Shown piece after piece: positions 214 through 19,955 of a stretch of DNA of 64,000 nucleotides. The DNA comes from Candidatus Hydrogenedens sp. (GTDB taxonomy: Bacteria > Hydrogenedentota > Hydrogenedentia > Hydrogenedentales > Hydrogenedentaceae). Positions within the stretch are counted from its first letter, which is position 1, and every line of letters starts with the position of its first letter. The DNA lies in NCBI GenBank assembly GCA_049968235.1, contig JBMFRC010000004.1:96001-160000 (forward strand), given 5' to 3'. Made by a program: the position numbers and the translations under genes. Under the pieces are notes generated by a model. That model was not told the origin of the DNA, did not search any database, and saw only the letters and a list, made by a program, of their open reading frames with translations.

Positions 214-1164
214 TTACCATTCGTCCAGTTCATAAGGACCTGCTCCAATTACTTGTTCACTCTCTACATCCACCCAAATTACTCCATGGTTCTCTTTATA
301 TCCTCCCCAAATTAACGGAACTTCCCAAGCATAAAAAAATTTGCTATTATTATTTGAAAGATTTTTTGGACCCCTTATTAAGAAAAAATTTATAGAAGGA
401 GCTATTACTAATTTAGGGTTTATATCTTCATTCATTTTCACAGAATACCTTGAAAAATACGGGTCATTTTCACACCATTTTTTTACTATATTTATTATCT
501 TTGTATTGTCTATTTTTATTTCAGGATTTATGTGATTAGAAGGAAGAGAAGGGGGAATATTAATATATCTGATAATTTCCCCATTCTCCATAGAAACCCA
601 TATTCTTAACACATGTTTTGAACGACAGGGAACATTTTTCAAACTAGATTTAAAAATAAACTCATAAGAACAAACTCTATCTAAACGGATTACTTTATAT
701 TCACTCGATATTTTATATGGGCTTTTTATTAAAAAATCTCCTGATTTTATTAAATTCTCAATTTTTTCCGAAGCTTTAGCTTCAGATAATAATTTATCAT
801 TCTTCACATCATTATCTTTTATAGTATTCATTAGATCAAGTAAATTTGTTATCTCAAAATAATAGACTCCCTTACATTCTCTGTCTATCCAGACATAATA
901 TTTGTTATCAAGTAATAAAGGTATATATTCACCTGATGGAATCTGAGAAGTTAAGAACTCACCTTTAAATTTATTCTCTTCTAAAATATTTATTTTTTCC
1001 ACTTTGTAATCCGCAACATTTGCAAAAAAATCCCTTATATAATTTTTACACTTTTCGTCTAACTCTTTTTCTTCCGAGTATAATGTTGATGTTAAACTAA
1101 ATAGAAGAAAACATATTATAATTAGATTTCTTTTTCTACTGTTCATCATTTTTTCATCCTCCAT
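214..1164 (-). CDS. hypothetical secreted protein (N-terminal signal peptide), Asn/Lys/Ile-rich; in AT-rich block
   Basis: ORF track; N-terminus MNSRKRNLIIICFLLFSLTSTLYS looks like a signal peptide; I recognise no domain; stop overlaps the start of the next gene. Confidence 0.5.
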   Translation of the reverse strand: MEDEKMMNSRKRNLIIICFLLFSLTSTLYSEEKELDEKCKNYIRDFFANVADYKVEKINILEENKFKGEFLTSQIPSGEYIPLLLDNKYYVWIDRECKGVYYFEITNLLDLMNTIKDNDVKNDKLLSEAKASEKIENLIKSGDFLIKSPYKISSEYKVIRLDRVCSYEFIFKSSLKNVPCRSKHVLRIWVSMENGEIIRYINIPPSLPSNHINPEIKIDNTKIINIVKKWCENDPYFSRYSVKMNEDINPKLVIAPSINFFLIRGPKNLSNNNSKFFYAWEVPLIWGGYKENHGVIWVDVESEQVIGAGPYELDEW

Positions 1165-1973
1165 TATTTCTTTTCAACAATTGCTATTTCATGCACTTCA
1201 TTATACGATGTATTTACAGCGATTAGAATTCTCTTTATACTACCTCTATTAAAGCACTTACCATTACTACTATTATGAAAGAATATAATGTGGTAACCAC
1301 TTATGAGATTGTCTGAAACAATGTCTTCAATTCCATTTTTGAAATTAGAAAGATAATTCATTTCTATTCCGAAATAATCGAGTATAGGCATCAGATGATA
1401 TTCAGAAATACAATTTTTAATAGATTTACTATCATTATTACTTAATGAAGAATATATATTTCTTTTAGAACGATACAAAAAACTGTATAAATTTCTAATC
1501 TGACAACTTTTCCTATCAAAAATAACCATTACATATGGGTCATACTGAAGATTAATTGAAAAGATGTTCACTATATCATTATTTTTATTTGGGAAACAAT
1601 TATTTTCAGGGACAAAAATAATTTCTATACCATTATTGTTTTGCTTAAAACATCCGAAAGGGAATTTACACTCATATATTGAATTAAGTAATAAAACAAT
1701 CTTATCGAAGTCTGTTTGTATCATTAGATTTTTGTCACATAAAGTTGTTTCTACTTTATCAATTTTTTCTAAATCTAATACTTTAGATGAAGCAAAGAAA
1801 CAATTACCTTCCCATAAACCAAGTTTAACTCCAATAGGATAAATAAATATTGAAGAAGAATGAATAATCTCTATTAAATTTTCTTTGCACATATTCAAAC
1901 AAAAATATCCTAAAGAGGAAAAAACCATAGTCAAGACCAAAATTACCAATAAAGATAGTAAAGTAACTCTCAT
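1164..1973 (-). CDS. hypothetical secreted protein (signal peptide), Cys-containing, AT-rich block
   Basis: ORF track; N-terminal hydrophobic signal MRVTLLSLLVILVLTMVFSS; stop/start overlap with downstream ORF suggests an operon. Confidence 0.5.
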   Translation of the reverse strand: MRVTLLSLLVILVLTMVFSSLGYFCLNMCKENLIEIIHSSSIFIYPIGVKLGLWEGNCFFASSKVLDLEKIDKVETTLCDKNLMIQTDFDKIVLLLNSIYECKFPFGCFKQNNNGIEIIFVPENNCFPNKNNDIVNIFSINLQYDPYVMVIFDRKSCQIRNLYSFLYRSKRNIYSSLSNNDSKSIKNCISEYHLMPILDYFGIEMNYLSNFKNGIEDIVSDNLISGYHIIFFHNSSNGKCFNRGSIKRILIAVNTSYNEVHEIAIVEKK

Positions 1974-2002: not shown

Positions 2003-2695
2003 TTAAGGATAAAAATCCTGATATCCTAATCTCCAGAATTTATTAAATAAACAACAAAAAGACATTTTTTTCTTATTAAAATTATAGTAAAATTCAAAGG
2101 GAATGTTATACAAAACATCTGTAGAGAATTCTTTATTGTCTGAACTACCATAGATATTTATTCTTTCAACAGTCTCCTTTGGCCATAAATCAGCAAACCT
2201 CATACCACCTGAAATATAAATATTCTCATCCGATGTTTTAATAGAGTATAATTTCTTATCTTTTCTAAGCTGTAAATAATCTAATAAAGAAAGTGTTAAA
2301 TTAAATACTTCTTCTTCCCTATAGTTAAAAAATTTTTCTAATACAGAATATTTACCTATTGGAGGACCTTCATAGAATATTACATTAAGCGTTGCTGGAT
2401 CGGTTACCAAATAAAAAATTTTCCCATTATCTGTTTTATATTCTATATAATAATATTCTCTCACCCGTGAAAAATCCATAATATGCCAGGTATCAAAATC
2501 TCCTAAAAATCGTTTTTTAGGAACCGCATTTCTCTCACCTAAAATTTCTTGTAAAAATATAGTATTTGCTTTATATACCTCTTCAGGAACATCAGCAAGG
2601 GAATAAATCTCCAATGCTTCTCTGAATATAAATGCAGAACTCACCACTAATCCAAAAGCAAACAATATAATTATTATATATATTTTCTTTTCCAT
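2003..2695 (-). CDS. hypothetical secreted protein (signal peptide)
   Basis: ORF track; N-terminus MEKKIYIIIILFAFGLVVSSAF is signal-like; co-oriented and tightly spaced with its neighbours. Confidence 0.45.
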   Translation of the reverse strand: MEKKIYIIIILFAFGLVVSSAFIFREALEIYSLADVPEEVYKANTIFLQEILGERNAVPKKRFLGDFDTWHIMDFSRVREYYYIEYKTDNGKIFYLVTDPATLNVIFYEGPPIGKYSVLEKFFNYREEEVFNLTLSLLDYLQLRKDKKLYSIKTSDENIYISGGMRFADLWPKETVERINIYGSSDNKEFSTDVLYNIPFEFYYNFNKKKMSFCCLFNKFWRLGYQDFYP

Positions 2696-2717: not shown

Positions 2718-3761
2718 TTAAAATATATCATCAAACCACTCATCTCCAAGTACTCTAAAATGAATATCGTATCCTGTTTCATCATAAGTATCTATCCATG
2801 CTTTATTTGCTGAGAGCGAAACTTTACGATAATTATATTCAGGAGCATAAACTAAATAATACCAAAAATAAGCGTCATATTTTAATAAGAGACTCTCCAG
2901 ATATTCTTCATCAAATCCTAATGCACAATTTGCATTGAAAACATCTTTCCAGGTGGATAATCTTGTTCCTGTATAACATGCAAAAAGATAGATAAATCTG
3001 TAGTTATGTTCCCTATTATAATAATTTACTGATATAGTATCTAATGCATCAAATTGTGAACATGCAGGAGGGTCTATGCATTCACAAGTAAGTGTGAAGT
3101 AACCGTCAACCTGTAAACATAATTGCTCACCATCAGCTGAATGTCCATCAAATACGAATATATCATGATGACATTTTAGTGATTCTAATACTGGGTCAGG
3201 GGTTGAAGGCTGGTCAATATATGTAACATAGCATCCTTGAGATTCTAATACACTCCGAGCATCAGATTCTCCTGGTAAAAGACTCCTTGTATCTCCATGA
3301 GCAATTAATACAGACGGTAATTTTTTAAACACACTTTTGACGTTAAGTTCATTGGTGTTAGGGGAAATGTGGATTTCGCCGTTTTGGCTTTCCCATTTGT
3401 TCATGTATATCTCCAATGGGTTGATACCGCCAATATTTTGATATTGACCATCTCCATTTTCTATCTCCCAATGGTCAAAGCTATATCCCAGACACGATTC
3501 CGCTGTCAGTTCTACTTTATTTGCATACATATCTTTATTGCTCAATATCTCATCTAAAAAACCCCCACTTGGAGTAGAATAATATCCATACAATATAGGT
3601 TTAAAAGGAAACGGGTTCCACCCATAATTCACTTTTCGACTATCATCAAACCCAATGGAGTCCGGATAAAAATTCACTAAAGGTCCCATTTTAATTACTC
3701 CCCCTTTATTAGCAATACATTCATTACCCGATATACAACCTACATCATAATTTAAGTACAC
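2718..3761 (-). CDS. hypothetical protein with caspase-like (clan CD cysteine peptidase-like) His/Cys dyad signature; GTG start; no signal peptide
   Basis: Hydrophobic strand then His (DIFVFDGHSADG), ~55 aa later a hydrophobic strand then Cys (FIYLFACYTG), like caspase SHG / QACxG spacing; start codon read as GTG at 3759-3761. Confidence 0.35.
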   Translation of the reverse strand: MYLNYDVGCISGNECIANKGGVIKMGPLVNFYPDSIGFDDSRKVNYGWNPFPFKPILYGYYSTPSGGFLDEILSNKDMYANKVELTAESCLGYSFDHWEIENGDGQYQNIGGINPLEIYMNKWESQNGEIHISPNTNELNVKSVFKKLPSVLIAHGDTRSLLPGESDARSVLESQGCYVTYIDQPSTPDPVLESLKCHHDIFVFDGHSADGEQLCLQVDGYFTLTCECIDPPACSQFDALDTISVNYYNREHNYRFIYLFACYTGTRLSTWKDVFNANCALGFDEEYLESLLLKYDAYFWYYLVYAPEYNYRKVSLSANKAWIDTYDETGYDIHFRVLGDEWFDDIF

Positions 3762-3781
3762 CTTATCCGTAACAAGTGCAA

Positions 3782-4741
3782 CTAAGTGGTTATCGCGAAC
3801 AGTCCGAGGATAAGGGGGGGATTAAATCCTGTCTGAACCGGTGGATACTCAATTGCTGGACGTACGAAATAATAATTGTCTTCCTGACTAAACCAGAAAA
3901 CCAAGGATTTACTTGTTTCTGGAAGAAATGCTAAATAAAAGTATGAATAATTGGTATTATAACAACTCCTTGAAAAATTACCTAAATAACAACCCGGATC
4001 TAATAAACAGCCATAACAATCATATCCATTACAAAACAGTGTTCCTGACACTCCTGATGGAAATAAAGATAAATTAACTGTATTATAGTAAATCTGGTAT
4101 GGAAAAGTATAATAGTATTGATATCGGATAGCTACATTCTCCGGTTTCAACATCTGTATCTGCACAACATTTTCAAAAAAACGAACCCCACCTATAGTCA
4201 ACATAAAATTTGGTGGAGAATTCCCTTCTACTTCTATTTCCGCAGTCTCTCCATAATCAAAATATTTCGTTTTGATCCATTGACTACTAGTCTCTATCAA
4301 TTCTTCATTACTTCCTCCTAAGATATTTACTTCTCCCGGTGCCGGCGCAGGATAAAATTTTTCTAAAACTACACTTAATCTTTGTCTCCCTTCCACCACC
4401 GCCGTTATTGTGGTATTTCCACTCAATATAAAACAGGTCACTGGTAAAAGGAAATTAGATACTGTATTTAGGCCATACGATTCCAAATAATTCCCATATA
4501 AAGATGCTTTCCATCTGATAAAGGTATAACCTTCTGCTGGAGTAAATTGCAATACTACCATCTGACCCTTTTTATATGTTGGGCCTTCAGGATATACCTC
4601 TATAGTCCCTGCATCTGTTAAAGTAGATCCAGTTAAATTCTTTATACTTAAGTCTAATGAAAAATTTTCTCCACAATCACACAGTTGGGGCAACTCCTGT
4701 GGGCAACCTGTTAAAAGAATGGAAACTATGCAAAAGAGCAA
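3782..4741 (-). CDS. hypothetical lipoprotein (lipobox LLTGC), Tyr/Asn/Gly-rich
   Basis: ORF track; N-terminus MLFCIVSILLTGC is a lipoprotein signal with Cys; C-terminus ...LILGLFAITT is encoded by the 21-bp sequence that recurs at 101-121. Confidence 0.5.
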   Translation of the reverse strand: MLFCIVSILLTGCPQELPQLCDCGENFSLDLSIKNLTGSTLTDAGTIEVYPEGPTYKKGQMVVLQFTPAEGYTFIRWKASLYGNYLESYGLNTVSNFLLPVTCFILSGNTTITAVVEGRQRLSVVLEKFYPAPAPGEVNILGGSNEELIETSSQWIKTKYFDYGETAEIEVEGNSPPNFMLTIGGVRFFENVVQIQMLKPENVAIRYQYYYTFPYQIYYNTVNLSLFPSGVSGTLFCNGYDCYGCLLDPGCYLGNFSRSCYNTNYSYFYLAFLPETSKSLVFWFSQEDNYYFVRPAIEYPPVQTGFNPPLILGLFAITT

Positions 4742-4803
4742 AGGAACAAAACATAATAGATTGTTATAAATTACCTTTTTCGTTTTTCTTCCCTCCTATT
4801 TCT

Positions 4804-6318
4804 TTATTGCGGGTTTATATTTTGCAGAAAAGATTTCTGTAATGGTTCTAAAGCAGGGTCGTAATTGGAAAATAGAGATTCTTCCAGGTCATTCATTCGC
4901 CGATTGTACTTTAACTGTTCCATGGGATGAATCTGCTGGGTTACTAATCTCGCTCGCAAATCCGAATTCGGTGTGCGTTCCGATATATCCCGATAATATC
5001 CGGTCACCTTTTCTCGTTCTCCACTTCTTCGACTCCCTTCTATTTCCATCGCTATCACCTCTAAACTCGCATCTATCGGACTTCGCTCTATCTGCTTCGC
5101 CCATGAATTTGCATTCCTCGCTATCTTTGAACCCGGATATTTTTTCGCCAGCCCGCCATATATCTCTCCTACCTCCGAGTACCAACCATATCGCAGAAAA
5201 TATCTACCCATTTTTTCCAACACACTTACCTGTTCATTATATAAATTTCTATCTATTACCCCAGGCAACACTCCCCAGTTTAATATCTCCTTGCCTAATT
5301 CCCGCATCCGTTTTACTTCATGTCCTTTCTGCAAATATTCTGCTAACAATAATTTCGCCCGTATCTGCACTACATCGCTGGCATCTGTCTGTTTGATTAC
5401 TTCCTCAAGGCTATCTCGAATTATCTTATCCCATTTCATATATTTACCTAATTGACTTAACATTACTATCTGCCCATATTGACATATACTATCCTTCTCA
5501 CTTACTATACCATGGGCTAACTTTTGTATTCCCAACTCTATCCTATTTCGTTCTCTATCTAATTCAGTTATCTTCTCAACTATACAACCTAAACTCGGCA
5601 TATCTGTCCCAATGCCCATCAATACACCCGCTCCATATACATTTAGCATCTCTACTACTCGTTCAAAAAAATATTTCTGTCCTTTTATATCCTCTACATA
5701 TTGTTTCTCCATATATTCCAATACCGGCAATAAAGACATCTGACGAACTATATTTAGACCTTTATAGGGCTTTGCCATTTCTAAAGTTTTCACTGAAAAT
5801 TGTATCGGGTCCTCTTTACAAAACTCCCTCGGCATTCCCAACATGCATATCACAGAGGAGATAAACTGCACACCTCGATGGAAACTATTTGTCAATCCAT
5901 ATAATTTTACATAGCCTGTATATTTCATCATATCTTTTTCATTCAATAATACCAGTCCACTTATTAACTCATCCGTCGGATATTTACCAAAATCTTCTAT
6001 TCGATTATCTCCCATTCCTCGCTCAAATTCGATTGTTCCAAATTTACCTCCCATGTATTGTTCCATGCCGAATATAAATAATTGGACAGGGCTTATCAGT
6101 ATATCTACACATTGCACATCATCCGCAGGCATCTCACGAAATAGATACACCAACCTCTTTAATCCGTCTCGTCCTTTGCCTGAGCATATCTCATCATAGG
6201 CAAGTTGTTCTTCTGCCTTCACCTTTTGTAAAAATGCTGGGTCAAGACTGTAGGAACTAATAGAACACAAACTACTGATAATTATTACACAACAGGAAAG
6301 ATATACAGACTTTCTCAT
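4804..6318 (-). CDS. hypothetical secreted protein (signal peptide), 504 aa
   Basis: ORF track; N-terminal signal MRKSVYLSCCVIIISSLCSISSYS; no domain recognised; composition less AT-skewed than genes to its left. Confidence 0.5.
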   Translation of the reverse strand: MRKSVYLSCCVIIISSLCSISSYSLDPAFLQKVKAEEQLAYDEICSGKGRDGLKRLVYLFREMPADDVQCVDILISPVQLFIFGMEQYMGGKFGTIEFERGMGDNRIEDFGKYPTDELISGLVLLNEKDMMKYTGYVKLYGLTNSFHRGVQFISSVICMLGMPREFCKEDPIQFSVKTLEMAKPYKGLNIVRQMSLLPVLEYMEKQYVEDIKGQKYFFERVVEMLNVYGAGVLMGIGTDMPSLGCIVEKITELDRERNRIELGIQKLAHGIVSEKDSICQYGQIVMLSQLGKYMKWDKIIRDSLEEVIKQTDASDVVQIRAKLLLAEYLQKGHEVKRMRELGKEILNWGVLPGVIDRNLYNEQVSVLEKMGRYFLRYGWYSEVGEIYGGLAKKYPGSKIARNANSWAKQIERSPIDASLEVIAMEIEGSRRSGEREKVTGYYRDISERTPNSDLRARLVTQQIHPMEQLKYNRRMNDLEESLFSNYDPALEPLQKSFLQNINPQ

Positions 6319-6596
6319 ACTCTATTCTCCTCTTTTAAGGTCTGTTCCTATTCAATTTTTCCTATACTACTTAATTAATTGTCTTTTTTAATTATAAAAA
6401 AAAAAAATTATTTGTCAAGACCTTTTTCTAAATTTTCTAAATTTTATAAATTAATTATTTTGAAAAAGAATGTTTTCTCCCATAAAGAACATTATTGAAC
6501 AAACCCTAAGTATGTATGACTTTTCTTTTATATAATATTTCTCCAAGGTAACATAAAAGTGAATAAAAACATAACTAACCCAACATATTCTAATCA

Positions 6597-7734: not shown

Positions 7735-10700
7735 ATGTTCCCGAACCGACAAAAATTGAATATGAATGGAGTTTGGCTCTTCATCCCTGACTGTGAAAAT
7801 ATAGGTGAAGAGAATCGATGGTATTTAAATCCGCCCGTTGACCAGGGAGCGGAAATTTCACTTCCTTTGTTAGAACCCATCTATGATATTAGCGATTCTA
7901 CTGCATTGTGGTTTATTAAAGAATTTAATATTGACAATTTACACGATGAAACTCTTCTGTTTCTATACTTACAGAATGTTAATTTTAAATCCGTTATATG
8001 GCTAAATGGACAGTATATAGGAATCCATGAGGGTGCTTTTACCCAATTTAACTTTAATATCACACGACATGCGCACATCGGGAAGAATTTACTTGTAATT
8101 AAGGTATCTCCATTTCCACAGCAGAATCTATCAAAGTTTACCATGATATATGATTCATCATGGATACAATTTCCGGGAATTTGGGGCGAGATATACATTG
8201 AATTCGTTCCTCGTTATCACATCCAAAATGTTCAGGTAAAACCGGATATACGTGGTAAAAGAATAGTAGTCAATGTATATGTAAATCATAGAGATAGTGT
8301 GTTGCGGGCAACAATACCTGAATTAAATACGGAGATAAAAAGTAAAAAACCGAAACTGATAATACCTTTGAAAGATTTTGAGACATGGGGGCCTCATTCT
8401 CCTAAGTTATACACTCTGCAAGTAGAATTTGTAACCCCAACATCTTCTGATTTTGCAGAGGTTCAGTTTGGAATGCGAGATTTTAGTATAAATGAAAACC
8501 AATTTACATTAAATTTTAAACCTTTTTTTGTTCGGGCATTCCATTTTGATTGGAATATAAAAGATTTAAATAGTCCTTCTTATTTAGATGATAATCTGAA
8601 AGATTTTTTTTCAAAACTACGTAAAGACAATTTTAATTTGATTCTATCTTATGGACAACCCTTACCTGAAAAGATACTTCGTATTTGTGATGAACACGGA
8701 ATTATGGTCGCTCAGACTCCCTCGATACAATCTGATACTAATTCAAAGAAATGGAGAGAACTGGCACAAACTGAAATCGAAGAATTGTTAAACAATAATA
8801 TTAACAACCCTTCTTTTGTATGGTTATGGTTTGAATACACATCAAATAATTTTAATATTTCAAAGTTTGTCCATAATATTCGTAAAATAGACCGAAGTAG
8901 ATTAATTACGGTATATTCACCACCTCCTTACTTCAAATATCCTTCTTACTCCTGTATTCCTTATAACATACACTTATTAACTATGGGACAGATATGTACA
9001 CAATCTTTCGATTATGTGAACAACCCAACGCAGAAATTTTTAAGAAATGCTGGTGAGGATAAAATACTTAATTTTGCAGTTCAGACAGTATCAGGGGAAG
9101 TAGAACATCAAAATATAAATATCAGAGATAAATATGAATCTTATATATCTAAAATTAAGGATGGATTTATAGAACGAGATTTAAGTTTAACATTAACATC
9201 TGTCGAGAATCTTTTGGAACAAATAAAAGAAATTCACATTGCTAATTTGCAGGAGTATGTAAATTCTATATTATGGAATCCAAAAATAAAAGGGTACTGT
9301 TTACAAAACTTATCAGAAAAAAGTATTCTTTCTTCTAATGGATTTATAAATTTTTTAAAACTACCTGACAATGTACATAAGCAACTGCGTCAAATAAACA
9401 ACCCTCTTCGCTTAATAATTGCATTAGAAAAAACGAATATATTGCAAGATGAAGAAACCGCTATTAATGTCTCTTTTTTCACCCAAAATGATGAATATCT
9501 ATCAAATGAGACAGAAAATAAAGGTTTATTATCGATTCATATATCCAGTCCGACACAACAGGTATTATGGAAGAAAAGAAAGGATATTAAATTTAAAAAA
9601 GATAATAAGGAACTGTGGGTAGGAGATATTTCTGGTTCCAGAAATATAGGACAACATACATTAGTAGCAAGACTATCATTAAACAATCAAATAATTTCTG
9701 AAATTTCAAGCCCTATAAATGTGTTCCCTATTCCCCAACCTACAAATATCCCCGTTGAATTTATTGATATAAACAAACAATTTTCAAAGATATGTTCTCC
9801 ATGGGTAAAAGAACCCACAACATTCCCGCCCATTTACATAGTTCCTCCTATTTACAATTCCGTGTTTGCATATCCTGAAACTGAATTTATTTCGATGATG
9901 GAGCATGTAAGACATGGGGCAATTGGAATTATTTTCTCCCCTCCTGACGATTGGAATGAACTAATCAAATGGTTGCCGGATTGTCCACAATTTACACCTA
10001 TAAATCTTGGGTATCCCGATAAATTTTTACACTTTCACTATGTAAAACCTCATCCATTGTTTCTTAACCTTCCCAATCGTTGTTTAATGAAACAAGAATA
10101 CAAGAACATCTTGCCATCTAAAGTATTTTTGGAGAAAGGGGATGAAGATATTTGTGGTTGTGTTGTAATTCCACAAGGAAAAGATATGGAACCATTCTGG
10201 GGTTCTGATATTCTTGTTAGTCGTTATGGAGTTGGAAAACTGGTTTTCGTTCACTTAAGAGTATTAGAAAATATACCTGAAGACCCAGTTGCAGTCCATT
10301 TATTTATTAATATGGTAAATTATTTTGCCCGCAGGGCGATTCCTTCCTCAACAGATATTCCATTACCACAAAATACCCTTGAACAATTGCGACTTCAAAG
10401 AAGTAAGAAATTGCGGAAGTGGATGGTTATAGGCGAATTTCCTATTATAAATGAAGAAACGGGAAACACATTATATCCCAATATTGATTCTATAGATTTA
10501 ACCTCAACCTATTGGGGCAAGTATGGAGCAATAGGATGGAAACCCTATTATACCGATATAAAGAAAAACCACCTACTTGATTTTCATGAGGCTTTATCTA
10601 TCCCTTTATCGCCTTATCATCTCGTACAGGATAACGGTGTAGCATTTGCTTTTGCCGAATTTACTTATGAAGACAACGAGGAAATGATTCTGCAAATAGA

Positions 10701-10911
10701 AACTTCCAACTCATTTATATTATGGTTTAATAACAATATAGTTTTTGAAAACCAAAATCCACTTCCACAAGTCCAAATATTTGAAACAAAAGTATCTTTG
10801 CGCAAATGGAAAAATTCAATATTTATTAAAATGATTAAAAACAAAGGCGAACATTCTTTTATCGTTAATTTCAACGATAATAAAAGAAAAAAGATTGATA
10901 TAAATTGGTAA
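7735..10911 (+). CDS. large GH2-like protein (N-terminal GH2 sugar-binding/jelly-roll domain) with long uncharacterised C-terminal region; no signal peptide
   Basis: N-terminal WLFIPD...WYLNPPV...LYLQNVNFKSVIWLNGQYIGIHEGAFTQFNFNIT...GKNLLVIKV resembles the GH2 N-terminal domain pattern (W..W...V..NG..vG.H.g.FtpF..dIT...G.N.L.V.V); AAGGG RBS 6 nt upstream of the ATG. Confidence 0.5.
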   Translation: MFPNRQKLNMNGVWLFIPDCENIGEENRWYLNPPVDQGAEISLPLLEPIYDISDSTALWFIKEFNIDNLHDETLLFLYLQNVNFKSVIWLNGQYIGIHEGAFTQFNFNITRHAHIGKNLLVIKVSPFPQQNLSKFTMIYDSSWIQFPGIWGEIYIEFVPRYHIQNVQVKPDIRGKRIVVNVYVNHRDSVLRATIPELNTEIKSKKPKLIIPLKDFETWGPHSPKLYTLQVEFVTPTSSDFAEVQFGMRDFSINENQFTLNFKPFFVRAFHFDWNIKDLNSPSYLDDNLKDFFSKLRKDNFNLILSYGQPLPEKILRICDEHGIMVAQTPSIQSDTNSKKWRELAQTEIEELLNNNINNPSFVWLWFEYTSNNFNISKFVHNIRKIDRSRLITVYSPPPYFKYPSYSCIPYNIHLLTMGQICTQSFDYVNNPTQKFLRNAGEDKILNFAVQTVSGEVEHQNINIRDKYESYISKIKDGFIERDLSLTLTSVENLLEQIKEIHIANLQEYVNSILWNPKIKGYCLQNLSEKSILSSNGFINFLKLPDNVHKQLRQINNPLRLIIALEKTNILQDEETAINVSFFTQNDEYLSNETENKGLLSIHISSPTQQVLWKKRKDIKFKKDNKELWVGDISGSRNIGQHTLVARLSLNNQIISEISSPINVFPIPQPTNIPVEFIDINKQFSKICSPWVKEPTTFPPIYIVPPIYNSVFAYPETEFISMMEHVRHGAIGIIFSPPDDWNELIKWLPDCPQFTPINLGYPDKFLHFHYVKPHPLFLNLPNRCLMKQEYKNILPSKVFLEKGDEDICGCVVIPQGKDMEPFWGSDILVSRYGVGKLVFVHLRVLENIPEDPVAVHLFINMVNYFARRAIPSSTDIPLPQNTLEQLRLQRSKKLRKWMVIGEFPIINEETGNTLYPNIDSIDLTSTYWGKYGAIGWKPYYTDIKKNHLLDFHEALSIPLSPYHLVQDNGVAFAFAEFTYEDNEEMILQIETSNSFILWFNNNIVFENQNPLPQVQIFETKVSLRKWKNSIFIKMIKNKGEHSFIVNFNDNKRKKIDINW

Positions 10912-10946
10912 ATAAATTTCAATATTAAAATTAAAAGGGATAGAAA

Positions 10947-13301
10947 ATGAAAAAACAATTTATTTTCGCACTTTTATTGTTATCCTTCCTCATCCATGCA
11001 ACAGTTGCTTTTACACAAAGAAATGAGCCTTTTATCCAAGAAGTGCGGACTTTTTTCAGAGAAAAAGAAGGTTTAATAGAAGGGAATATAAGATATGTAG
11101 TCTATCTACAAACCTACGGAGTTTTTGTTTTATCTCACTCGGGTAATATCCAAAATTATAAAAATAATCAATGGCATTCTATTTCAAATGATACCTCTAT
11201 AAAACCTACTTACATGACAGGAGCAGGAAATTTTGTTTTTATTTCTGACCATAAACAAGCTGCACAGTATAATTTAGATGAAAATAAATGGGATATTCTC
11301 AGTTTGCCGATAGAACAAAAAATTAATGGTTTATATGCCACAATTTTATCCGATAAACAGTTAAAACTCTTTGTAATCTGCGAAACAAAAATAATTTGTT
11401 GTGGACTTAATTCTGCTGACTCAAAAATAATTAACGACCCCGGGACAAAAATATATTCTATTGCCGTAGGAGGAAGTGGTGATATTTTTGTTGGCACTCA
11501 AGAAGGCATCTACCAATATGATTCTTCAAAATCAGATTGGCAGTGGCTTTTACCGGAAGACAATAAGCGTAGATGGGCACCACGAAATGTAAAGGCTCTT
11601 ACTTTTGATAAGGAAGGAAACTTATGGTTCGGAAGTAAAGAGGGAGTAGGAAAATACAACCGAAGCACATGGGCATTATATACAGGAGCCGAAGGTTTGC
11701 CATGGAACGAATTTCTTTCTGCAGTTTCCGGTGAAAAGGATGATGTTGTATGGTTTGCAACAACCCGGGGAGCTATTCGGCATGAGAAAGGAAAATTTGA
11801 TTATCGTTTTAGTCATCGCTGGTTAATGAATGATTTCGTTAATTCAATTGCTGTAGAACCCAATGGAAATGCCTGGTTTGCTACACCCGAAGGTCTATCT
11901 CTTATCGAACGGAAACTCATGAATTTTGATGAGAAATCGGACTATTTCATTCAACAAGTAGAAACCCGTCATAATAGAGATGGATATGTTACTTCTTGTA
12001 AACTTAAAGAGCCTTTCAATACAGATACATGGGACCCATCAATCTCTGACAATGACGGCTTATATACAGCGATGTATGGAGCAGGGCATGCATTCCGTTA
12101 TGCAGTAACAAAAGACCCAAAGTCCAAAGAAATTGCTAAACGGAGTTTCTTTGCATGTAAACGACTTGTTGATATTACGGGCAGAGGTATGCCTGCTCGT
12201 TTCATAATACCCATTGATTGGCATGAACCTGTAAACGAGATTATGGGTGCTGAATATAATGCTTATAGGCAGAAAACCGACCCCCTATGGAAACAAATTG
12301 TGCCCCGTTTCGTAACCTCTTCTGACGGCAAATATATGTGGAAATGTGATACAAGTTCCGATGAATTGATAGGTCATTATTTTTTCTATGGTATTTATTA
12401 TGACCTTGTTGCAGAAACAGAAGAAGAAAAACAACCCGTAAGAGAAGTTGTCAAAGCAATAACAGACCATCTTATTAATAACAATTATTGTTTAGTAGAC
12501 CATGATGGAAAACCTACACGATGGGCATTTTTTAATCCTGAAATGCTTCACTCATTAAAAGGTTGGGAACAACGGGGGTTAAATTCAATGATGATGTTAT
12601 CTTTTCTTCGGGTGGCTTATCATATAACCGGGGATGAGGTTTATAATGAGAAATTTAATGAACTTTGCAATAAATATTTTTATCATGTCAATGCCATGCA
12701 GTCTAAAATGTATTTTCCTCCTGATTATGTGGTCCCCTGGGATAACAATCTTTGCCTTATGAGTTGGTATGGATTATTTCGTTATGAAGAAGATAGAGAA
12801 AAACTCTTGATGTGGAGAATAGCATTAGAGCATGCATGGCAACATGCCGGCAGAATGAGGCAACCCTTCTGGAATTTCTTATACCTTGCCAGCGAAAAAA
12901 ACTTTGCCCGACATTTAGAAACAAAGAAATTTGACGATTTATATTCGGATGTCCCGGGATTAGTTCCTAAGGTATTAGAAACCTTTGACAAACCCAATCC
13001 GACTGCTCTGGAACATGCAATAGAAACCTTGAAGGGTATCCCGTTAGACTTAATATTCTACTGTATGGACAATACACATAGACTTGATATTATTTTAGAT
13101 GCGGATAAACATCCCGAAAAAGTCCGTGGATGGAAAATAGATGGTTATGCGATACCTATACAGGAAAGTCCTCATATTCGTAACGATAATGACCCATTTT
13201 CTTTAAGCAGTTGCAAAGGTAAAGATGGTGTAGTTGAAGAAGAAGGAACTTTTTTCTTACTTCCTTACTGGATAGGTGTTTATTACGGATTTATTAAATA
13301 A
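10947..13301 (+). CDS. secreted protein: N-terminal beta-propeller (two-component-regulator-propeller-like repeats) + C-terminal uncharacterised (possibly alpha/alpha-barrel-like) domain
   Basis: Signal peptide MKKQFIFALLLLSFLIHATVA; repeated G-x-LWFGS/WFAT-type motifs (GNLWFGSKEGVGKY, DVVWFATTRGAIRH, GNAWFATPEGLSLI); immediately downstream of the GH2-like gene. Confidence 0.45.
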   Translation: MKKQFIFALLLLSFLIHATVAFTQRNEPFIQEVRTFFREKEGLIEGNIRYVVYLQTYGVFVLSHSGNIQNYKNNQWHSISNDTSIKPTYMTGAGNFVFISDHKQAAQYNLDENKWDILSLPIEQKINGLYATILSDKQLKLFVICETKIICCGLNSADSKIINDPGTKIYSIAVGGSGDIFVGTQEGIYQYDSSKSDWQWLLPEDNKRRWAPRNVKALTFDKEGNLWFGSKEGVGKYNRSTWALYTGAEGLPWNEFLSAVSGEKDDVVWFATTRGAIRHEKGKFDYRFSHRWLMNDFVNSIAVEPNGNAWFATPEGLSLIERKLMNFDEKSDYFIQQVETRHNRDGYVTSCKLKEPFNTDTWDPSISDNDGLYTAMYGAGHAFRYAVTKDPKSKEIAKRSFFACKRLVDITGRGMPARFIIPIDWHEPVNEIMGAEYNAYRQKTDPLWKQIVPRFVTSSDGKYMWKCDTSSDELIGHYFFYGIYYDLVAETEEEKQPVREVVKAITDHLINNNYCLVDHDGKPTRWAFFNPEMLHSLKGWEQRGLNSMMMLSFLRVAYHITGDEVYNEKFNELCNKYFYHVNAMQSKMYFPPDYVVPWDNNLCLMSWYGLFRYEEDREKLLMWRIALEHAWQHAGRMRQPFWNFLYLASEKNFARHLETKKFDDLYSDVPGLVPKVLETFDKPNPTALEHAIETLKGIPLDLIFYCMDNTHRLDIILDADKHPEKVRGWKIDGYAIPIQESPHIRNDNDPFSLSSCKGKDGVVEEEGTFFLLPYWIGVYYGFIK

Positions 13302-13314
13302 GCCTAATTTTTCG

Positions 13315-14376
13315 TTAAATTTTCTTCTTTTGTTTTATTTGTCTTGTTCTTTTTTTTGTATTTTGTGTTTTTACAGTTTCTTTTTTACCTGTGTAGGTCC
13401 TGTTAGTTTTTTTTCGGGTCTTTATATTTGTCTTTTTCTTTTCAGATTCTTTTGAACTTTCTTCCATATCTTTCATTACTTTTTTTATATCTCCTTTATA
13501 AAAAGGGTCTGGTGGGACATAACTACCCAACAAAGTATCTTCTACTGCAAGAATATATCTTTTTTTCTCCTTTTTTGAGAAGTGCTCTATATGAGAATCT
13601 TCAAAATTCTGAACGGTTCTTTGTTCCTCGTGAATATTTGTTGTATCTGGATTATCGCTGGGCGAATCTGTTTTACAGATTGCTTGTAAACGGGCGATCT
13701 CAGCACTTGCAATTGTATGGAAAGGTGTTTTCGGTCTCTTCCTCAAAATTTGTTTATATAATTGAATGGCTTCGTTATATTTTTTGAATATTGCAGACTT
13801 TATCTTTGCCTGATAGTATTTTGCCTCAATCCATGCAGATGTTCGTTCTCCATAGTTATCAATAATCTCTTGTAAAGTCTGGAACGCCTCTTCATATCTT
13901 TCTTTTGATTTTAGTAATCGAAATACTTCAAAAAGGGCTTCCACCTGGTTATTCTTATAACTTCGATATAAGGCAATAGCCCCATTAATATCTCCCATAA
14001 GTGCTAATTTTCTTGCTTTAGCAAAGGGAGATGGATCATCCACTTTATCCCCTATAGGACTAATCTGTTCTACTATTCGTGAAGATACGACATTCACGAA
14101 GAAAAAAGAATAATAAAACATAGGGATAAACCAGAAAAGTAAAGACCAACCTAATATAACCAAACGATGATGAGGTTCAGCATTCAAAAATAAGTATCCT
14201 GAAAATAGAACATACGAGGTGATAACCATAATCCACACAAAAAGAATCAATGAAAATTTTGATAATTCTTTTCTTTGTAATAATATATTTTTAATCAATT
14301 TTCCTGTCAAAATAAGAAAAAGGACAAAACATGATAAAGAGATAAATTCCTCTAAATGCGGGTAGTATATATTCAT
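13315..14376 (-). CDS. membrane-anchored TPR-like protein with highly basic Lys-rich C-terminal tail
   Basis: N-terminal ~110 aa with 3-4 hydrophobic helices, a central TPR-like helical region, and a C-terminal ~60 aa that is >40% Lys/Arg/Thr (KKKTNIKTRKKTNRTYTGKKETVKTQNTKKRTRQIKQKKKI). Confidence 0.5.
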   Translation of the reverse strand: MNIYYPHLEEFISLSCFVLFLILTGKLIKNILLQRKELSKFSLILFVWIMVITSYVLFSGYLFLNAEPHHRLVILGWSLLFWFIPMFYYSFFFVNVVSSRIVEQISPIGDKVDDPSPFAKARKLALMGDINGAIALYRSYKNNQVEALFEVFRLLKSKERYEEAFQTLQEIIDNYGERTSAWIEAKYYQAKIKSAIFKKYNEAIQLYKQILRKRPKTPFHTIASAEIARLQAICKTDSPSDNPDTTNIHEEQRTVQNFEDSHIEHFSKKEKKRYILAVEDTLLGSYVPPDPFYKGDIKKVMKDMEESSKESEKKKTNIKTRKKTNRTYTGKKETVKTQNTKKRTRQIKQKKKI

Positions 14377-14456
14377 AACAGTTATAAACCCCCAACAAAT
14401 TTATTAACATTGCCCGATTTAACTTTGTTATATTATAACAGAAGAGGACTATATTC

Positions 14457-15725
14457 ATGAGAAAAAAAATTGAAAAAAATTTAGAAAATAAAATTGTCCC
14501 TTTGAATGAAATACAAAAATATGTAATGGCTTCATTGGAAAACGATGATGAAAACCAAATAGCAGAATTTGTAGATTTTATTATCAGTCAGGGTGCTTAT
14601 CACATAGCAAGTGATATACATTTAGAGCCATGGTCCGAACACATAGCATTACGGTATCGTATAGATGGGATGCTTCACCAGGTTGCACTTATCCCACGAG
14701 AATATCAATCAAGAATTACAGCACGAATAAAGATTTTATCAGACCTTATTATTTACAGGAAGGATGTTCCTCAGGATGGTCGGATAGATTCAAATAAAAC
14801 GACCTGTCAACGACCTTTAAGGGTATCGATTGTTCCAACAATTAAAGGGGAAAAAGTTGTCATTCGTATTTTAGGGGAATCTCAGGATTTATTTCATCTT
14901 GATGTATTAGGATTTCAACCTTACGTCGAAGAAAAACTTAAAGAATTAATTAAAAGGAATCAAGGAACACTTCTACTTACAGGACCCAGTAGTAGCGGTA
15001 AGACCACAACTATCTATGCAATTATTCAGGAGATGATACAATCAAACCGTTCCCTCCCTAATATTGTTACTATTGAGGACCCTGTGGAATATTCAATGGA
15101 TAAAATTTCACAAATACAAATCAATCCTCATGTAGATTTTACATTTGCTAATGCCCTACGTTCTATTTTACGGCAGGACCCGGAAGTAATTATGGTAGGA
15201 GAAATTCGTGATTATGAAACAGCACATATAGCCATTCAAGCGGGACTTACGGGGCATTTTGTGATTAGTACTATCCACAGTGGAACATCAGCAGGTGTTT
15301 TTATTCGCTTACTGGATATGGGAATAGAACCTTATTTAGTTGCTTCTTCTGTAATTGCTACATTAGCCCAGCGACTTATCCGAATTAATTGTCCCGATTG
15401 TATTGAAACTTATAGACCCCATGTATCTACTTATTTATTCTTAAACTTATCTAATAAAGAAGAGATATTTTATAAGAGTAGAGGTTGTTCTATGTGTCAA
15501 TATATTGGTTATAGAGGGAGGGCATGTATAGGAGAGTTGTTGTCGGTATCCTCTGAAATAGAGGAATTGGTATTAAAACATCCCACCGCTTCTCAATTAC
15601 ACAATCTTGCTGTCTCTTTAGGGATGGAAACCATGTCAGAAGATGGATTAAAAAAAGCACGAAAAGGGATTACAACCCTCGAAGAACTTATTCGTGTTTT
15701 GCCTTCAGGTTCCCATATTTATTAA
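14457..15725 (+). CDS. type II/IV secretion system ATPase, GspE/PilB family, short form (core ATPase + C-terminal tetracysteine motif only)
   Basis: Walker A GPSSSGKTTT; conserved ASDIHLEP block; C-terminal CPDC...CSMC tetra-Cys as in GspE; 422 aa, lacks the N-terminal N1 domain. Confidence 0.75.
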   Translation: MRKKIEKNLENKIVPLNEIQKYVMASLENDDENQIAEFVDFIISQGAYHIASDIHLEPWSEHIALRYRIDGMLHQVALIPREYQSRITARIKILSDLIIYRKDVPQDGRIDSNKTTCQRPLRVSIVPTIKGEKVVIRILGESQDLFHLDVLGFQPYVEEKLKELIKRNQGTLLLTGPSSSGKTTTIYAIIQEMIQSNRSLPNIVTIEDPVEYSMDKISQIQINPHVDFTFANALRSILRQDPEVIMVGEIRDYETAHIAIQAGLTGHFVISTIHSGTSAGVFIRLLDMGIEPYLVASSVIATLAQRLIRINCPDCIETYRPHVSTYLFLNLSNKEEIFYKSRGCSMCQYIGYRGRACIGELLSVSSEIEELVLKHPTASQLHNLAVSLGMETMSEDGLKKARKGITTLEELIRVLPSGSHIY

Positions 15726-15753
15726 ATTTCTTTTAATGTTTGGAGAAGAAGTT

Positions 15754-16677
15754 ATGTATCAAGGAGTAATATTAGCTGCGGGACATGGAGCCAGACTCGG
15801 TCCCTTTGGTGAACAAAATCCTAAACCTATTGTCCCTATCGCAAATAAACCTTTAATCGTTTACCAGATTGAAGCATTAAAAGCCCTTGGTGTTACTGAT
15901 TTTATTGTGGTTATAGGACATTTAGGGTATCGAATTATTCAGACGTTAGGAAATGGAAACAATTGGGGTATTAATATTCAGTATGTAGAACAAGAAAAAC
16001 GATTAGGATTAGCACATGCAGTAGGGCAATTGGAACCGCATATTAAAGGTCCTTTTTTTCTTCTTTTAGGAGATATATTTTTCCATGCTCCTCGTTTGAA
16101 CCTCATGTCCGAAGTCATGCTCCAGAACCAATGTGCCTGCGTATTAGCTACAAAAGAAGAAGATAATATTGAAAACATAAAGAAAAATTTCAGTGTTTAT
16201 ATTTCTAAGGAAGGGTTTGTAACAAAGGTGGTGGAAAAGCCTAAATATCCTCAAACGAACTTAAAAGGGTGTGGCATTTATTTGTTTGATGAACGGATTT
16301 TTGAAGGTATTCGACGAACTCCACGCACTGCATTAAGAGATGAATATGAATTAACGGATTCTATTCAAATCCTTATTGATTTTGGTTATCCTGTGAAAGC
16401 ATTATCTATTATCGAATGGGATGTAAATTTAACCTATATTAAAGACCTTATTACATGTTGTAATTACGAATTAGCGAGACAGAAAAAAACATATATAATC
16501 GGAAATGATTGTAAAATTGGGGACAACTGTTCTTTTATAGAAACTGTAATTGGAGATAATGTCTCTATTGGAGATAATTGCACATTTAATAAATGTGTTA
16601 TTTTAAATAATGTTTCTATTTTGCCCAATACCTACCTTAAAAATTGTATAGTATCCCCCGAAGGTATTTTAGAATAA
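15754..16677 (+). CDS. sugar-1-phosphate nucleotidylyltransferase with C-terminal left-handed beta-helix (hexapeptide repeats)
   Basis: N-terminal GVILAAGHGARLGPF...KPIVPIANKPLI NTP-transferase motif; C-terminal IGDNCSFIETVIGDNVSIGDNCTF hexapeptides; start moved to the ATG at ~15754, which follows a GGAG RBS. Confidence 0.7.
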   Translation: MYQGVILAAGHGARLGPFGEQNPKPIVPIANKPLIVYQIEALKALGVTDFIVVIGHLGYRIIQTLGNGNNWGINIQYVEQEKRLGLAHAVGQLEPHIKGPFFLLLGDIFFHAPRLNLMSEVMLQNQCACVLATKEEDNIENIKKNFSVYISKEGFVTKVVEKPKYPQTNLKGCGIYLFDERIFEGIRRTPRTALRDEYELTDSIQILIDFGYPVKALSIIEWDVNLTYIKDLITCCNYELARQKKTYIIGNDCKIGDNCSFIETVIGDNVSIGDNCTFNKCVILNNVSILPNTYLKNCIVSPEGILE

Positions 16678-16690
16678 AAAATCTAATGAA

Positions 16691-17728
16691 TTATTTATGA
16701 TGTTCGTTTAGAATTCCCGTTTCAGGATTATAATCCCATTCGCGGTCTTCATAAGGATGTTCAGGTAAAAAGGTCATAACATTCTTATTTAATATATCTT
16801 GAAGAGTTGGTGGATATGTTCCAAATCGTTCATAATACATTTTTATTCCATTTTCTAATAAATGTTTGTTTCGTTCTAATTGCTCATCTAATATTGTAGT
16901 ATTCTCGACTTTACCTGATTGTGATATAAAAAACCTTCCCCCTAATGGGTCGCGAATGGAATCTGAAGATAATCCTATTTCTTCTAATTTTTCCGGTAAT
17001 TTGTTATTTGCTTGTTTATATTTCTCCACACGTGCTGTTAATTCACGACAAATTTGTTTGATTTCCACCATTAGCAATTTTCTTTCGGCTAAATCGCGTA
17101 ATAATTTATCTCCACTCTTTAATAAATTTGACCACATATCTCTCTCGATTTCTATCAAATCATGTTCATAATTTAATTTTTCCGCCAAATCTATTATAAA
17201 TTGTGGTGTTTTTCCTGTTGCAGAACTCATGGCAAGATACATTCCGGCAAGTTTTCTTGAACCGGGTTCGTTGGTTCTATTAAGAAGATATATCATACCT
17301 GCCTCATAGGGTAAGTCCCAGGTCTCCGGACGGTAGTAAATGCCACGGTGGAGTAATTTCAGGGCAGAATCGGAATCAGCTCGTAATGAGGATAAAAAGA
17401 CACTACCAAAGCGATATACTTCTCTAAAATAAGGGTCTAACTGAACGACCGCATTTAACATTTTTTCCAACCACTCGAAAGAAAAATCTCCATGAATTTC
17501 AGCACCCACGTATAATAAACAATGTATCCACAAGAAATCGGCAATTATTGTATCTAATCCAGCGGTAAAATATCTTAATAACTTTTCATTAGGTAAATAT
17601 AGCAATTCTTTACTTTTTACTTTTGAAAATGATGTTATTTGAAATTGGATACAAATAATTGAGGATAGCAATATAATAATAAGAATAGATTGGAATATTT
17701 TATTTCTGATGAAATAAGATTTAAACAT
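16691..17728 (-). CDS. hypothetical protein with N-terminal TM/signal anchor, co-operonic with ABC-2 exporter
   Basis: ORF track; N-terminal hydrophobic segment; 8-nt overlap with the upstream ABC-2 permease gene; no domain recognised. Confidence 0.45.
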   Translation of the reverse strand: MFKSYFIRNKIFQSILIIILLSSIICIQFQITSFSKVKSKELLYLPNEKLLRYFTAGLDTIIADFLWIHCLLYVGAEIHGDFSFEWLEKMLNAVVQLDPYFREVYRFGSVFLSSLRADSDSALKLLHRGIYYRPETWDLPYEAGMIYLLNRTNEPGSRKLAGMYLAMSSATGKTPQFIIDLAEKLNYEHDLIEIERDMWSNLLKSGDKLLRDLAERKLLMVEIKQICRELTARVEKYKQANNKLPEKLEEIGLSSDSIRDPLGGRFFISQSGKVENTTILDEQLERNKHLLENGIKMYYERFGTYPPTLQDILNKNVMTFLPEHPYEDREWDYNPETGILNEHHK

Positions 17729-18482
17729 CTTTCCTCTGAAACATTAAAACTGCAAGATAAATGAAAAATATTGAATATAAGATTCCATATAGGATGGTGT
17801 AAATCACATATAAATAGGAAACGGGTACCCCATTAACAACTTCGGAACGAATATCAAAGTTAGCAAAATTAGGTAAAATGTAATAAAGTGCCTGCAATAG
17901 TGGTTTACTCCATGTCCCTTCAAAATTGGGAGGAAGGTCAATTAATACTCCTGTTGAATGTCCAAATACATAGAAACAGAAGACAATAATTGCCCCTAAA
18001 ATAGGAGAACTTAAAGTAGAGAAAAGAACTGCAAGGGCTGTTACTAATAATAACTTCATAAACACAAGAAACGAAGCGATAAAATACCAATGATTAATCT
18101 CTCCTCCTAAAATAACGATATATATAGCAGATATAATACTCATCAAGATAACTACCCCAAAAATTAAAAGGGACAATCCCAGATATTTTCCGATAACAAA
18201 TTCATAACGATGTAATGGTTGAGCAATGATAGTATAAATTGTCCGTTTATCAATTTCTTTGTAAACCAGATTAGTCCCCACAAAAATAGCAATTAAAGTC
18301 CCGAAAATGGACATTCCTGCTAATGATAGGTCTTTAATAATCTTTATATCCTGTCCAATACTTATCCACCCTACTGCTTTTGAACCTATAATAACCACTC
18401 CTGCAAAAAGTAATAGTACATATAATACTTTATCGCGGACAGATTCGCGAAAAGTATTTTGTGCAACTGCTAAAATTTTCAT
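17721..18482 (-). CDS. ABC-2 family transporter permease
   Basis: ~6 predicted TM helices; 253 aa; immediately downstream of the ABC ATPase with a 3-nt gap. Confidence 0.65.
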   Translation of the reverse strand: MKILAVAQNTFRESVRDKVLYVLLLFAGVVIIGSKAVGWISIGQDIKIIKDLSLAGMSIFGTLIAIFVGTNLVYKEIDKRTIYTIIAQPLHRYEFVIGKYLGLSLLIFGVVILMSIISAIYIVILGGEINHWYFIASFLVFMKLLLVTALAVLFSTLSSPILGAIIVFCFYVFGHSTGVLIDLPPNFEGTWSKPLLQALYYILPNFANFDIRSEVVNGVPVSYLYVIYTILYGILYSIFFIYLAVLMFQRKDV

Positions 18483-18485
18483 ATT

Positions 18486-19463: not shown

Positions 19464-19484
19464 ACAATTGTTTTATCTTCTTAT

Positions 19485-19940: not shown

Positions 19941-19955
19941 CTATATGCATCCACC

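Follow-up and report, generated by a model that had tools for sequence, protein, structure and literature searches.

Two open reading frames annotated as separate genes in Candidatus Hydrogenedens sp. are the two halves of one frameshifted gene. They lie in a stretch of 64,000 nucleotides (contig JBMFRC010000004.1, positions 96,001 to 160,000), which is called the window here. Positions ~2718–4783 of its minus strand very probably form one gene that encodes a lipoprotein of ~675–690 aa with a predicted clan CD peptidase domain at its C-terminus. ORF1 covers the N-terminal half of this lipoprotein, and ORF2, the reading frame that was originally flagged, covers the C-terminal half (Table 1). 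A frameshift of 1 nt in a poly-C tract separates them, so that ORF2 appeared to be a signal-less gene with a GTG start. Because ORF2 is the distal part of a lipoprotein gene, the enzyme appears to be built for the cell envelope and not for the cytoplasm. The case brings together a clan CD family that is new, the architecture of a lipoprotein with B-repeats and a predicted partner of the PepSY type.

Table 1. Features of the protease gene and its neighbourhood. Positions are counted from the first nucleotide of the window.
Feature	Position	Strand	Description
Partner gene	214..1164	-	316 aa; predicted membrane anchor and YpeB-like tandem of PepSY-like domains
Cluster gene	1164..1973	-	269-aa exported protein, no fold assigned; relatives seen only in L004 and L005 (near-identical)
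Cluster gene	2003..2695	-	230-aa exported protein; family also in L009 cluster
ORF2 (flagged ORF)	2718..3761	-	347 aa, GTG start; C-terminal half of lipoprotein
Clan CD (CHAT/gingipain-like) cysteine peptidase domain, predicted	2742..3320	-	ORF2 residues ~148–340
T-run ~2760	~2760		Window T4, L004 T4, L005 T3
T-run ~2857	2854..2858 (approximate)	-	Window T3, L004 T4, L005 T4
Codon of putative catalytic Cys262	2976..2978	-	End of β4, A-C-x-x-G motif
Codon of putative catalytic His207	3141..3143	-	End of β3, G-H motif
Last InlB-B-repeat-like β domain	3321..3524	-	ORF2 residues ~80–147; motif GYSFDHWE
ORF1	3782..4741	-	N-terminal half of lipoprotein; InlB B-repeat-like β domains
Poly-C tract	3814–3820	-	Splits gene by frameshift; window C7, L004 C8, L005 C7
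Lipobox region	4703..4741	-	TTG 4741 is the mechanical ORF start; LLTGC, lipidated Cys codon 4705–4703
ACG at expected start-codon site	4781..4783	-	Putative ATG-to-ACG change or very weak start
Shine-Dalgarno AGGAGG of ancestral full-length gene	4792..4797	-	Read off the sequence; 8 nt 5' of ACG 4783–4781
Cluster gene	4804..6318	-	504-aa exported protein, conserved 5' of protease gene

Three-frame translation of positions 3650–3960 indicated that the ORF2 frame is open 5' of both candidate starts, until a TAA that abuts the C7 run (G7 on the plus strand). ORF1 closes 30 nt past this run. When one C was added to the tract, ORF1 and ORF2 fused into a single ORF of 674 aa. The 90%-identity cluster of P0001, the NCBI version of ORF2, yielded a 634-aa protein (P0061) from another Ca. 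Hydrogenedens MAG, and this protein equals the reconstruction across the junction (...GFNPPPYPRTVRDNHLVALVTDKVYLNYD...). The L004 contig, which encodes it, matches the window DNA at 99.92% identity and carries C8 at the tract. ORF1 and ORF2 are together colinear with P0003 (590 aa) and P0005 (610 aa), each of which is one single gene on its own contig. ORF1 by itself is colinear with residues 24–237 of P0003 (E 2e-9) and residues 1–95 of P0005 (E 1e-8). These results show that ORF1 and ORF2 belong to a single gene. When the window was translated in six frames and searched with a profile, this was the sole copy of the family and no paralogue turned up.

The original prediction had described ORF2 as starting with GTG and lacking a signal peptide. 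The 347-aa frame does exist as a mechanical ORF, but its GTG cannot be taken as a biological start: NCBI starts the protein at ATG 3689 (P0001, 323 aa, 'hypothetical protein'), and the frame is open further 5', to the poly-C tract. A Shine-Dalgarno-like AAGGGGGAG is present 8 nt 5' of ATG 3689. It lies within the codons for NKGGVI, a segment that aligned to the conserved family motif GQGVV. The lack of a signal peptide also turned out to be apparent only, as ORF1 (303 aa in NCBI, 'InlB B-repeat-containing protein') supplies a lipoprotein signal with LLTGC and the C8 sister contig reads through the junction. Since the two annotated ORFs are one disrupted gene, signal-peptide reasoning on such fragments is misleading.

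In-frame translation from the ACG at 4783 gave (M)KKVIYNNLLCFVPLLFCIVSILLTGC, a canonical lipoprotein signal with the same length as that of P0003. The sequence in frame 5' of TTG 4741 is RKTKKVIYNNLLCFVPLLFCIVSILLTGC, with AGGAGG before it. An ATG in place of the ACG would thus give a textbook lipoprotein signal, and the full n-region is obtained only if translation begins at ACG 4783. No difference between the window and L004 was listed at the ACG site, a position that the L004 contig spans. The LLTGC of ORF1 aligned with the lipoboxes LAGC and VAGC of P0003 and P0024 and, judged by eye, conforms to the pattern [LVI][ASTVI][GAS]C. ORF1 matched the Pfam model Flg_new_2 (InlB B-repeat, PF18998) with 28.7 bits (E 1.3e-6), above the threshold of 23.6 bits, and P0061 matched it with 37.2 bits. 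The last repeat lies in ORF2. It was recognized there solely by phmmer, in which many multi-repeat proteins matched residues 64–122, and the AlphaFold 2 model has β strands at residues 82–147 (pLDDT 83–91).

The motifs on which the original prediction was built are present: IFVFDGHS starts at ORF2 residue 201 and contains His207, FIYLFACYTG starts at residue 256 and contains Cys262, and the two residues are exactly 55 positions apart. Phmmer was run exhaustively against 1.84 billion representative proteins and gave 59 matches. About 12 of them covered the C-terminal domain, and the rest fell on the B-repeat. At 50% identity, the protease domain forms about a dozen clusters among these proteins. 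Members with a taxonomic label, from this lineage and L001, all belong to Hydrogenedentota, an uncultured phylum. Cys262 was found in 14 of the 14 distinct aligned members; Gly265, Trp271, Gly282 and Trp300 are likewise invariant or almost so. Of the 11 distinct homologues that cover the site, 8 retain His207. The expected conservation of the dyad therefore held completely for Cys and for most members in the case of His; three short members (P0012, the 257-aa form of L009 and P0051) have Glu at this position. Part of the family may thus be non-catalytic.

A profile built from 14 family sequences was compared with the PDB. There was one significant match, SAVED-CHAT 8tl0_A, at E 7.3e-5 (9.9e-5 with a domain-only profile). 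The family GHG aligned with the GHG of 8TL0, the Cys of the family C-x-x-G aligned with the first Cys of NACC, and the helix after β5 was aligned as well. The aligned His and Cys are 47 residues apart in the 8TL0 chain. In SAVED-CHAT the dyad H375/C422, with a spacing of 47, has been proven by mutation (bioRxiv 10.1101/2023.06.23.546230). The aligned residues are presumably this dyad; the offset between the chain numbering and that of the paper is unexplained.

The structure of the ORF2 protein was modelled using AlphaFold 2 with the 14-sequence alignment, which is shallow. The mean pLDDT was 74.9. Most blocks of the catalytic domain exceeded 90, and low values were confined to residues 1–79 and a Cys-rich loop at 221–232. 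The predicted order is β1(150–155)-α1-β2(178–183)-α2-β3(201–205)-α3-β4(256–260)-α4-β5(279–283)-α-α5-β6(335–339). Clan CD is defined by a central, mainly parallel β-sheet of order 2-1-3-4-5-6 with about five flanking helices, in which the catalytic His follows β3 (usually as H-G) and the Cys follows β4 (usually as A-C) (PMC4357240). The model has this strand and helix order, with G206-H207 directly after strand 201–205 and A261-C262 directly after strand 256–260. Foldseek with the model returned 8TL0 at E 1.6e-9. The structural neighbours, with their scores, were SAVED-CHAT (8tl0_A, 17.3), the gingipains RgpB (4ief_B, 16.4) and Kgp (4rbm_A, 15.0), separase (13.0), metacaspases (12.2) and legumain (12.1). 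The assignment to clan CD made in the original prediction is thus borne out by the profile match, with its aligned GHG and Cys, and by the predicted fold. The likeness to clan CD is homology, not chance. The C-terminal domain is a predicted clan CD peptidase, nearest to CHAT in sequence and to CHAT and gingipains in modelled fold.

ORF2 as a query gave nothing significant against Pfam, NCBIfam or PDB sequences. For this domain, no family member reached the threshold of a Pfam or NCBIfam model, and the sub-threshold Pfam matches were only to clan CD families (C25, C13 and CHAT). For CHAT (PF12770, threshold 24 bits), ORF2 had no match at E ≤ 1, and the best member, P0009, scored 10.8 bits (E 0.32). 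For Peptidase_C25 (PF01364, threshold 23 bits), ORF2 had no match, and P0021 scored 21.3 bits (E 1.9e-4) over profile positions 228–274 only, a match that spans its His...Cys region. C14, C13 and C11 gave no Pfam or NCBIfam match, with C13 at E 0.24 in one member, and the likeness to these families is structural only. As no model was matched at threshold, the peptidase domain represents an unclassified clan CD family. No conserved S1-pocket residue was identified. Matches to bleomycin hydrolase and AcrIIC3 (E 0.3–0.7) fell within the B-repeat region and were discarded as noise. Clostripain was rejected as the closest relative, the C11 structures being among the weaker clan CD matches.

The new family is placed between cytoplasmic CHAT defence proteases and surface gingipains. 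In CHAT proteases, such as SAVED-CHAT of Haliangium ochraceum (8TL0) and Csx29/TPR-CHAT of Craspase, the catalytic His and Cys are the counterparts of the GHG and (N/L)xC motifs in the alignment. These named examples are cytoplasmic, are fused to sensors (SAVED, TPR) and belong to defence systems, whereas the protein here is a lipoprotein with B-repeats and a predicted PepSY partner and has no PADLOC match. The gingipains RgpB and Kgp (C25) are, as the protein here would be, extracytoplasmic surface-associated clan CD peptidases with Ig-like β domains. Gingipains carry a prodomain at the N-terminus and a T9SS domain at the C-terminus. Pfam found no C-terminal sorting domain in the protein here. 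It differs from them in that its β domains are N-terminal to the catalytic domain, its anchor is a lipobox and the part of inhibitor would fall to a separate protein. Caspases, metacaspases and paracaspases (C14), legumain and GPI8 (C13), separase (C50) and clostripain (C11) share only 7–15% identity with it. In contrast to these caspase-type families, it has no QACxG pentapeptide and no recognizable S1 Arg/Gln/Arg or acidic pocket residues.

The neighbours of ORF2 had been described as secreted, and direct reading agreed: hydrophobic signal-like N-termini were found on the partner gene, the three other cluster genes of Table 1 and ORF1. Four independent lineages could be compared, namely the window with L004 and L005; L001, a Hydrogenedentota MAG; L002 with L003; and L007 with L008 and L009. 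In all four lineages with flanks, an exported partner homologue of ~300 aa adjoins the protease gene or is at most two genes away. The block is therefore a cluster conserved across Hydrogenedentota and not the accessory cassette it had been taken for. In L008 and L009, protease-like genes that are short, lack a signal and stand alone, with Glu in place of the His, are interleaved with three partner paralogues. In the partner model, whose mean pLDDT is only 76, a membrane helix at the N-terminus precedes domains that tentatively resemble a PepSY tandem of the YpeB kind. Pfam PepSY gave a weak match below significance to one member of the partner family (E 0.12). YpeB is a chaperone-inhibitor of SleB, and PepSY/FTP propeptides have the same role for M4 peptidases (PMC13556211). 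The modelled fold and the gene linkage suggest that the partner is not a substrate of the protease but regulates or chaperones it, and the YpeB-like protein probably keeps the protease in check. As with ypeB–sleB, the partner gene forms an operon-like pair with the gene of its putative target enzyme (PMC13556211). Unlike YpeB–SleB and the PepSY/FTP systems of M4/M36, the enzyme here would be a clan CD cysteine peptidase and not a metallopeptidase or lytic transglycosylase.

The following mechanism is proposed. The intact protein would be exported, lipid-anchored through the lipobox LLTGC and active in the cell envelope. Its several B-repeat domains may serve as a stalk or binding module. By homology with CHAT proteases, gingipains and caspases, Cys262 would attack the scissile bond with His207 as the general base. 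At least one predicted membrane-anchored YpeB-like tandem-PepSY protein is co-encoded. It would most likely bind the protease domain and serve in trans as its chaperone-inhibitor, the role that propeptides play for M4 proteases and YpeB for SleB. In the window strain, C7 in place of C8, a 1-nt deletion, interrupts the gene and would leave it off or almost off. Taken to its full extent, the proposal is a Hydrogenedentota-specific envelope module that combines a lipid-anchored clan CD protease of a new family, trans-inhibition by a YpeB-like PepSY protein and expression toggled by the poly-C tract; we consider this whole speculative and rather doubtful. The linkage to YpeB-like proteins leads to the hypothesis that PepSY proteins may regulate caspase-fold cysteine peptidases. 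If this is true, chaperone-inhibition of the PepSY type extends from M4 metallopeptidases and SleB to caspase-fold enzymes.

The state of the gene was compared among the near-identical MAGs. The window, L004 and L005 contigs have 4.3–5.3 kb in common at 99.5–99.9% identity; besides that of the window, the assemblies are GCA_049969095.1 and GCA_049971155.1. An intact ORF was found in none of the three, and each carries at least one frameshift in the gene. T4 at ~2857 in L004 and L005 causes a second frameshift, after which the frame ends in FWYYFSLCS*. All three indel differences among the contigs fall inside the 2-kb gene, of ~5.3 kb aligned, and our calculation puts the probability of this by chance at ~0.06. 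L005 has an N10 scaffold gap within the gene, and the L007 homologue is likewise frameshifted. The poly-C tract is the sole G/C homopolymer of at least 7 nt in the window, which comes from a genome of 35% GC; chance alone would produce ~0.5 of these tracts per 64 kb. It is not conserved in homologues. Because the scaffolds are short and SPAdes-like, a simple homopolymer sequencing error appears less likely here. Given the C7 frameshift and the ACG at the start site, the gene is probably switched off or decaying in the window strain, and the enzyme may not be made here.

The same observations could mean that in this lineage the gene has died and persists as a pseudogene, with the protease domain a relic and nothing functional made from 2718–4783. 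We regard this as a serious possibility, though somewhat short of an even chance. Three lesions argue for it, namely the ACG start site, the poly-C frameshift (window and L005) and the T-run frameshift (L004 and L005), as do the lack of any intact copy, the concentration of indels in the gene and the frameshifted L007 homologue. Indels aside, however, the coding sequence is intact with perfect catalytic motifs, and one added C restores the window copy downstream of the start. As the lesions differ among strains that are almost identical, they must be recent or reversible, and errors of assembly could account for some of the indels or for all of them. Decay is also compatible with the reading of the encoded product as a clan CD lipoprotein. 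Another reading is that the poly-C tract is a contingency locus, where slipped-strand change between C7 and C8 turns a surface protease on in some cells of a population and off in others, so that the frameshift would be regulatory and neither decay nor error. The tract is unique in the window and lies within a surface-lipoprotein gene, C7 and C8 alleles occur among contigs more than 99.5% identical, and the sharing of C7 by the window and L005 but not L004 would, given the shared SNPs, need recurrent change or recombination. The short L004 and L005 contigs, with the gap of L005 in the gene, also suggest strain heterogeneity. We nevertheless think phase switching unlikely: only three sequences were compared, such a tract is close to chance expectation, ordinary T3/T4 runs account for the two further indels, the ACG start favours decay and the tract is absent as a conserved feature in homologues.

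The two remaining readings concern the product. ORF2 could be a real gene of its own, with translation from ATG 3689 or GTG 3761, whose caspase-like product works in the cytoplasm as an effector or in defence. The NCBI-annotated start is preceded by the Shine-Dalgarno-like AAGGGGGAG, L008 and L009 have short signal-less paralogues as tightly packed single genes, and the closest solved relatives are CHAT proteases associated with CRISPR and CBASS. Against this, homology to full-length relatives runs in frame 5' of both starts to the poly-C tract, the sister strain has the fused ORF and the Shine-Dalgarno-like string is inside the NKGGVI codons. The short forms begin ~100 residues further in, and those of L008 and L009 are without the His. 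PADLOC defence models matched neither the ORF2 protein nor its block. Four Cys residues between His207 and Cys262 (residues 215, 226, 228 and 234) would also be typical of an exported protein. We therefore judge a stand-alone effector very improbable. To the other reading, that the domain is a transpeptidase, sortase or ligase that attaches or matures the exported neighbours, as in the precedents PorU (C25-like), GPI8 and legumain-type ligases, we give the least credence of all. It would fit the structural neighbours, which include gingipain/C25, the legumain-type ligase OaAEP1 and GPI transamidase, as well as a block whose neighbours are all exported and the placement of Hydrogenedentota in the FCB group by NCBI taxonomy. 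Yet nothing in the sequence links the domain to PorU or GPI8, and the conserved neighbour resembles a PepSY regulator, not cargo. A lipid-anchored clan CD protease under a YpeB-like regulator remains our preferred reading.

Among the other genes of the cluster, no relation was found between the 269-aa protein and the partner family. Hhalign tied the 230-aa protein only weakly to that family (probability 20%), and in phmmer this protein matched a 248-aa gene of L009 at 8345–9091 (E 3.8e-11). Homologues of the 504-aa protein are located 5' of the protease gene in L009 (556 aa) and, split into 309 and 199 aa, in L002.

Contigs L004 and L005, from near-identical sister MAGs, were compared with the window. 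In addition to the poly-C site, at which the protease gene is frameshifted, single-T indels in T3/T4 runs distinguished both contigs from the window, and an N10 scaffold gap was also among the differences (listed in the table with the other features located). The poly-C site, the single-T indels and the N10 gap were all within the protease gene; its flanks of about 3 kb contained substitutions only. The protease gene looks like a hotspot either of strain-level variation or of assembly trouble.

Features located in the window and in homologous contigs
Feature	Location	Strand	Size or residues	Remark
Differences of sister contigs (L004, L005) from the window	window ~2857, ~2760 and 3713			T-run indels, N10 gap
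Strong SD AGGAGG and ACG 8 nt downstream	window 4781-4797	(-)		ACG where ATG is expected
Four cysteines, C215, C226, C228 and C234	window 3080-3120	(-)	ORF2 residues 215-234	
Stand-alone signal-less protease-domain paralogue	L009 6253-7026		257 aa	His to Glu, Cys kept
Stand-alone signal-less protease-domain paralogue	L008 1201-2001		266 aa	His to Glu, Cys kept
Split homologue of the 504-aa exported protein	L002 338-1882		309 + 199 aa	
GH2-like protein	within window 7735-23084		1058 aa	cluster flanks
GH38 alpha-mannosidase	within window 7735-23084		1042 aa	cluster flanks
Reg_prop beta-propeller protein	within window 7735-23084			cluster flanks
T2SSE ATPase	within window 7735-23084			cluster flanks
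ABC-2 transporter	within window 7735-23084			cluster flanks

A frameshift also split the homologous protease gene in L007 (MAG GCA_015657915.1) at about 480-540, where …FPIPSIPK* was followed by PEVNLSIEEGLADVF… in a different frame; the annotation gives a 169-aa gene and a 400-aa gene. In Logan contigs L002 and L003, the gene homologous to 4804..6318, which encodes a 504-aa exported protein in the window, was split into two ORFs (309 and 199 aa).

At the start of the lipoprotein gene, the ACG was in frame with the canonical lipoprotein signal KKVIYNNLLCFVPLLFCIVSILLTGC and stood at its head. The sole remaining canonical start was TTG 4741, which would leave 12 residues before the Cys and no charged n-region. 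The ACG may represent a lesion of the start codon; alternatively, it may itself act as a non-canonical start. The comparison of the window with L004 listed no differences in this SD/ACG region.

The four cysteines of ORF2 listed in the table, the C-terminal half of the protease gene, were located in a low-confidence loop between the predicted catalytic His and Cys. Cys-rich insertions occupied the same place in its homologues. This arrangement would be consistent with disulfides in an enzyme that is exported, or with a loop that covers the active site and has a regulatory role.

The short forms in L008 and L009, with Glu for the catalytic His, may be pseudo-proteases. Their genes were interleaved with three paralogues of the PepSY-like partner. 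The L009 cluster also encoded a homologue (E 3.8e-11) of the window's 230-aa exported neighbour (2003-2695, minus strand). In hhalign, this 230-aa protein weakly matched the first of the partner family's PepSY-like modules (prob 20%, E 1e-3), and it may be another, divergent PepSY-like protein.

The cluster flanks encoded many glycoside hydrolases. Together with the Reg_prop beta-propeller, T2SSE ATPase and ABC-2 transporter, these fit an envelope or polymer-degrading lifestyle. The window's longest homopolymer, A12 (6396-6407), was intergenic, upstream of the 504-aa gene.
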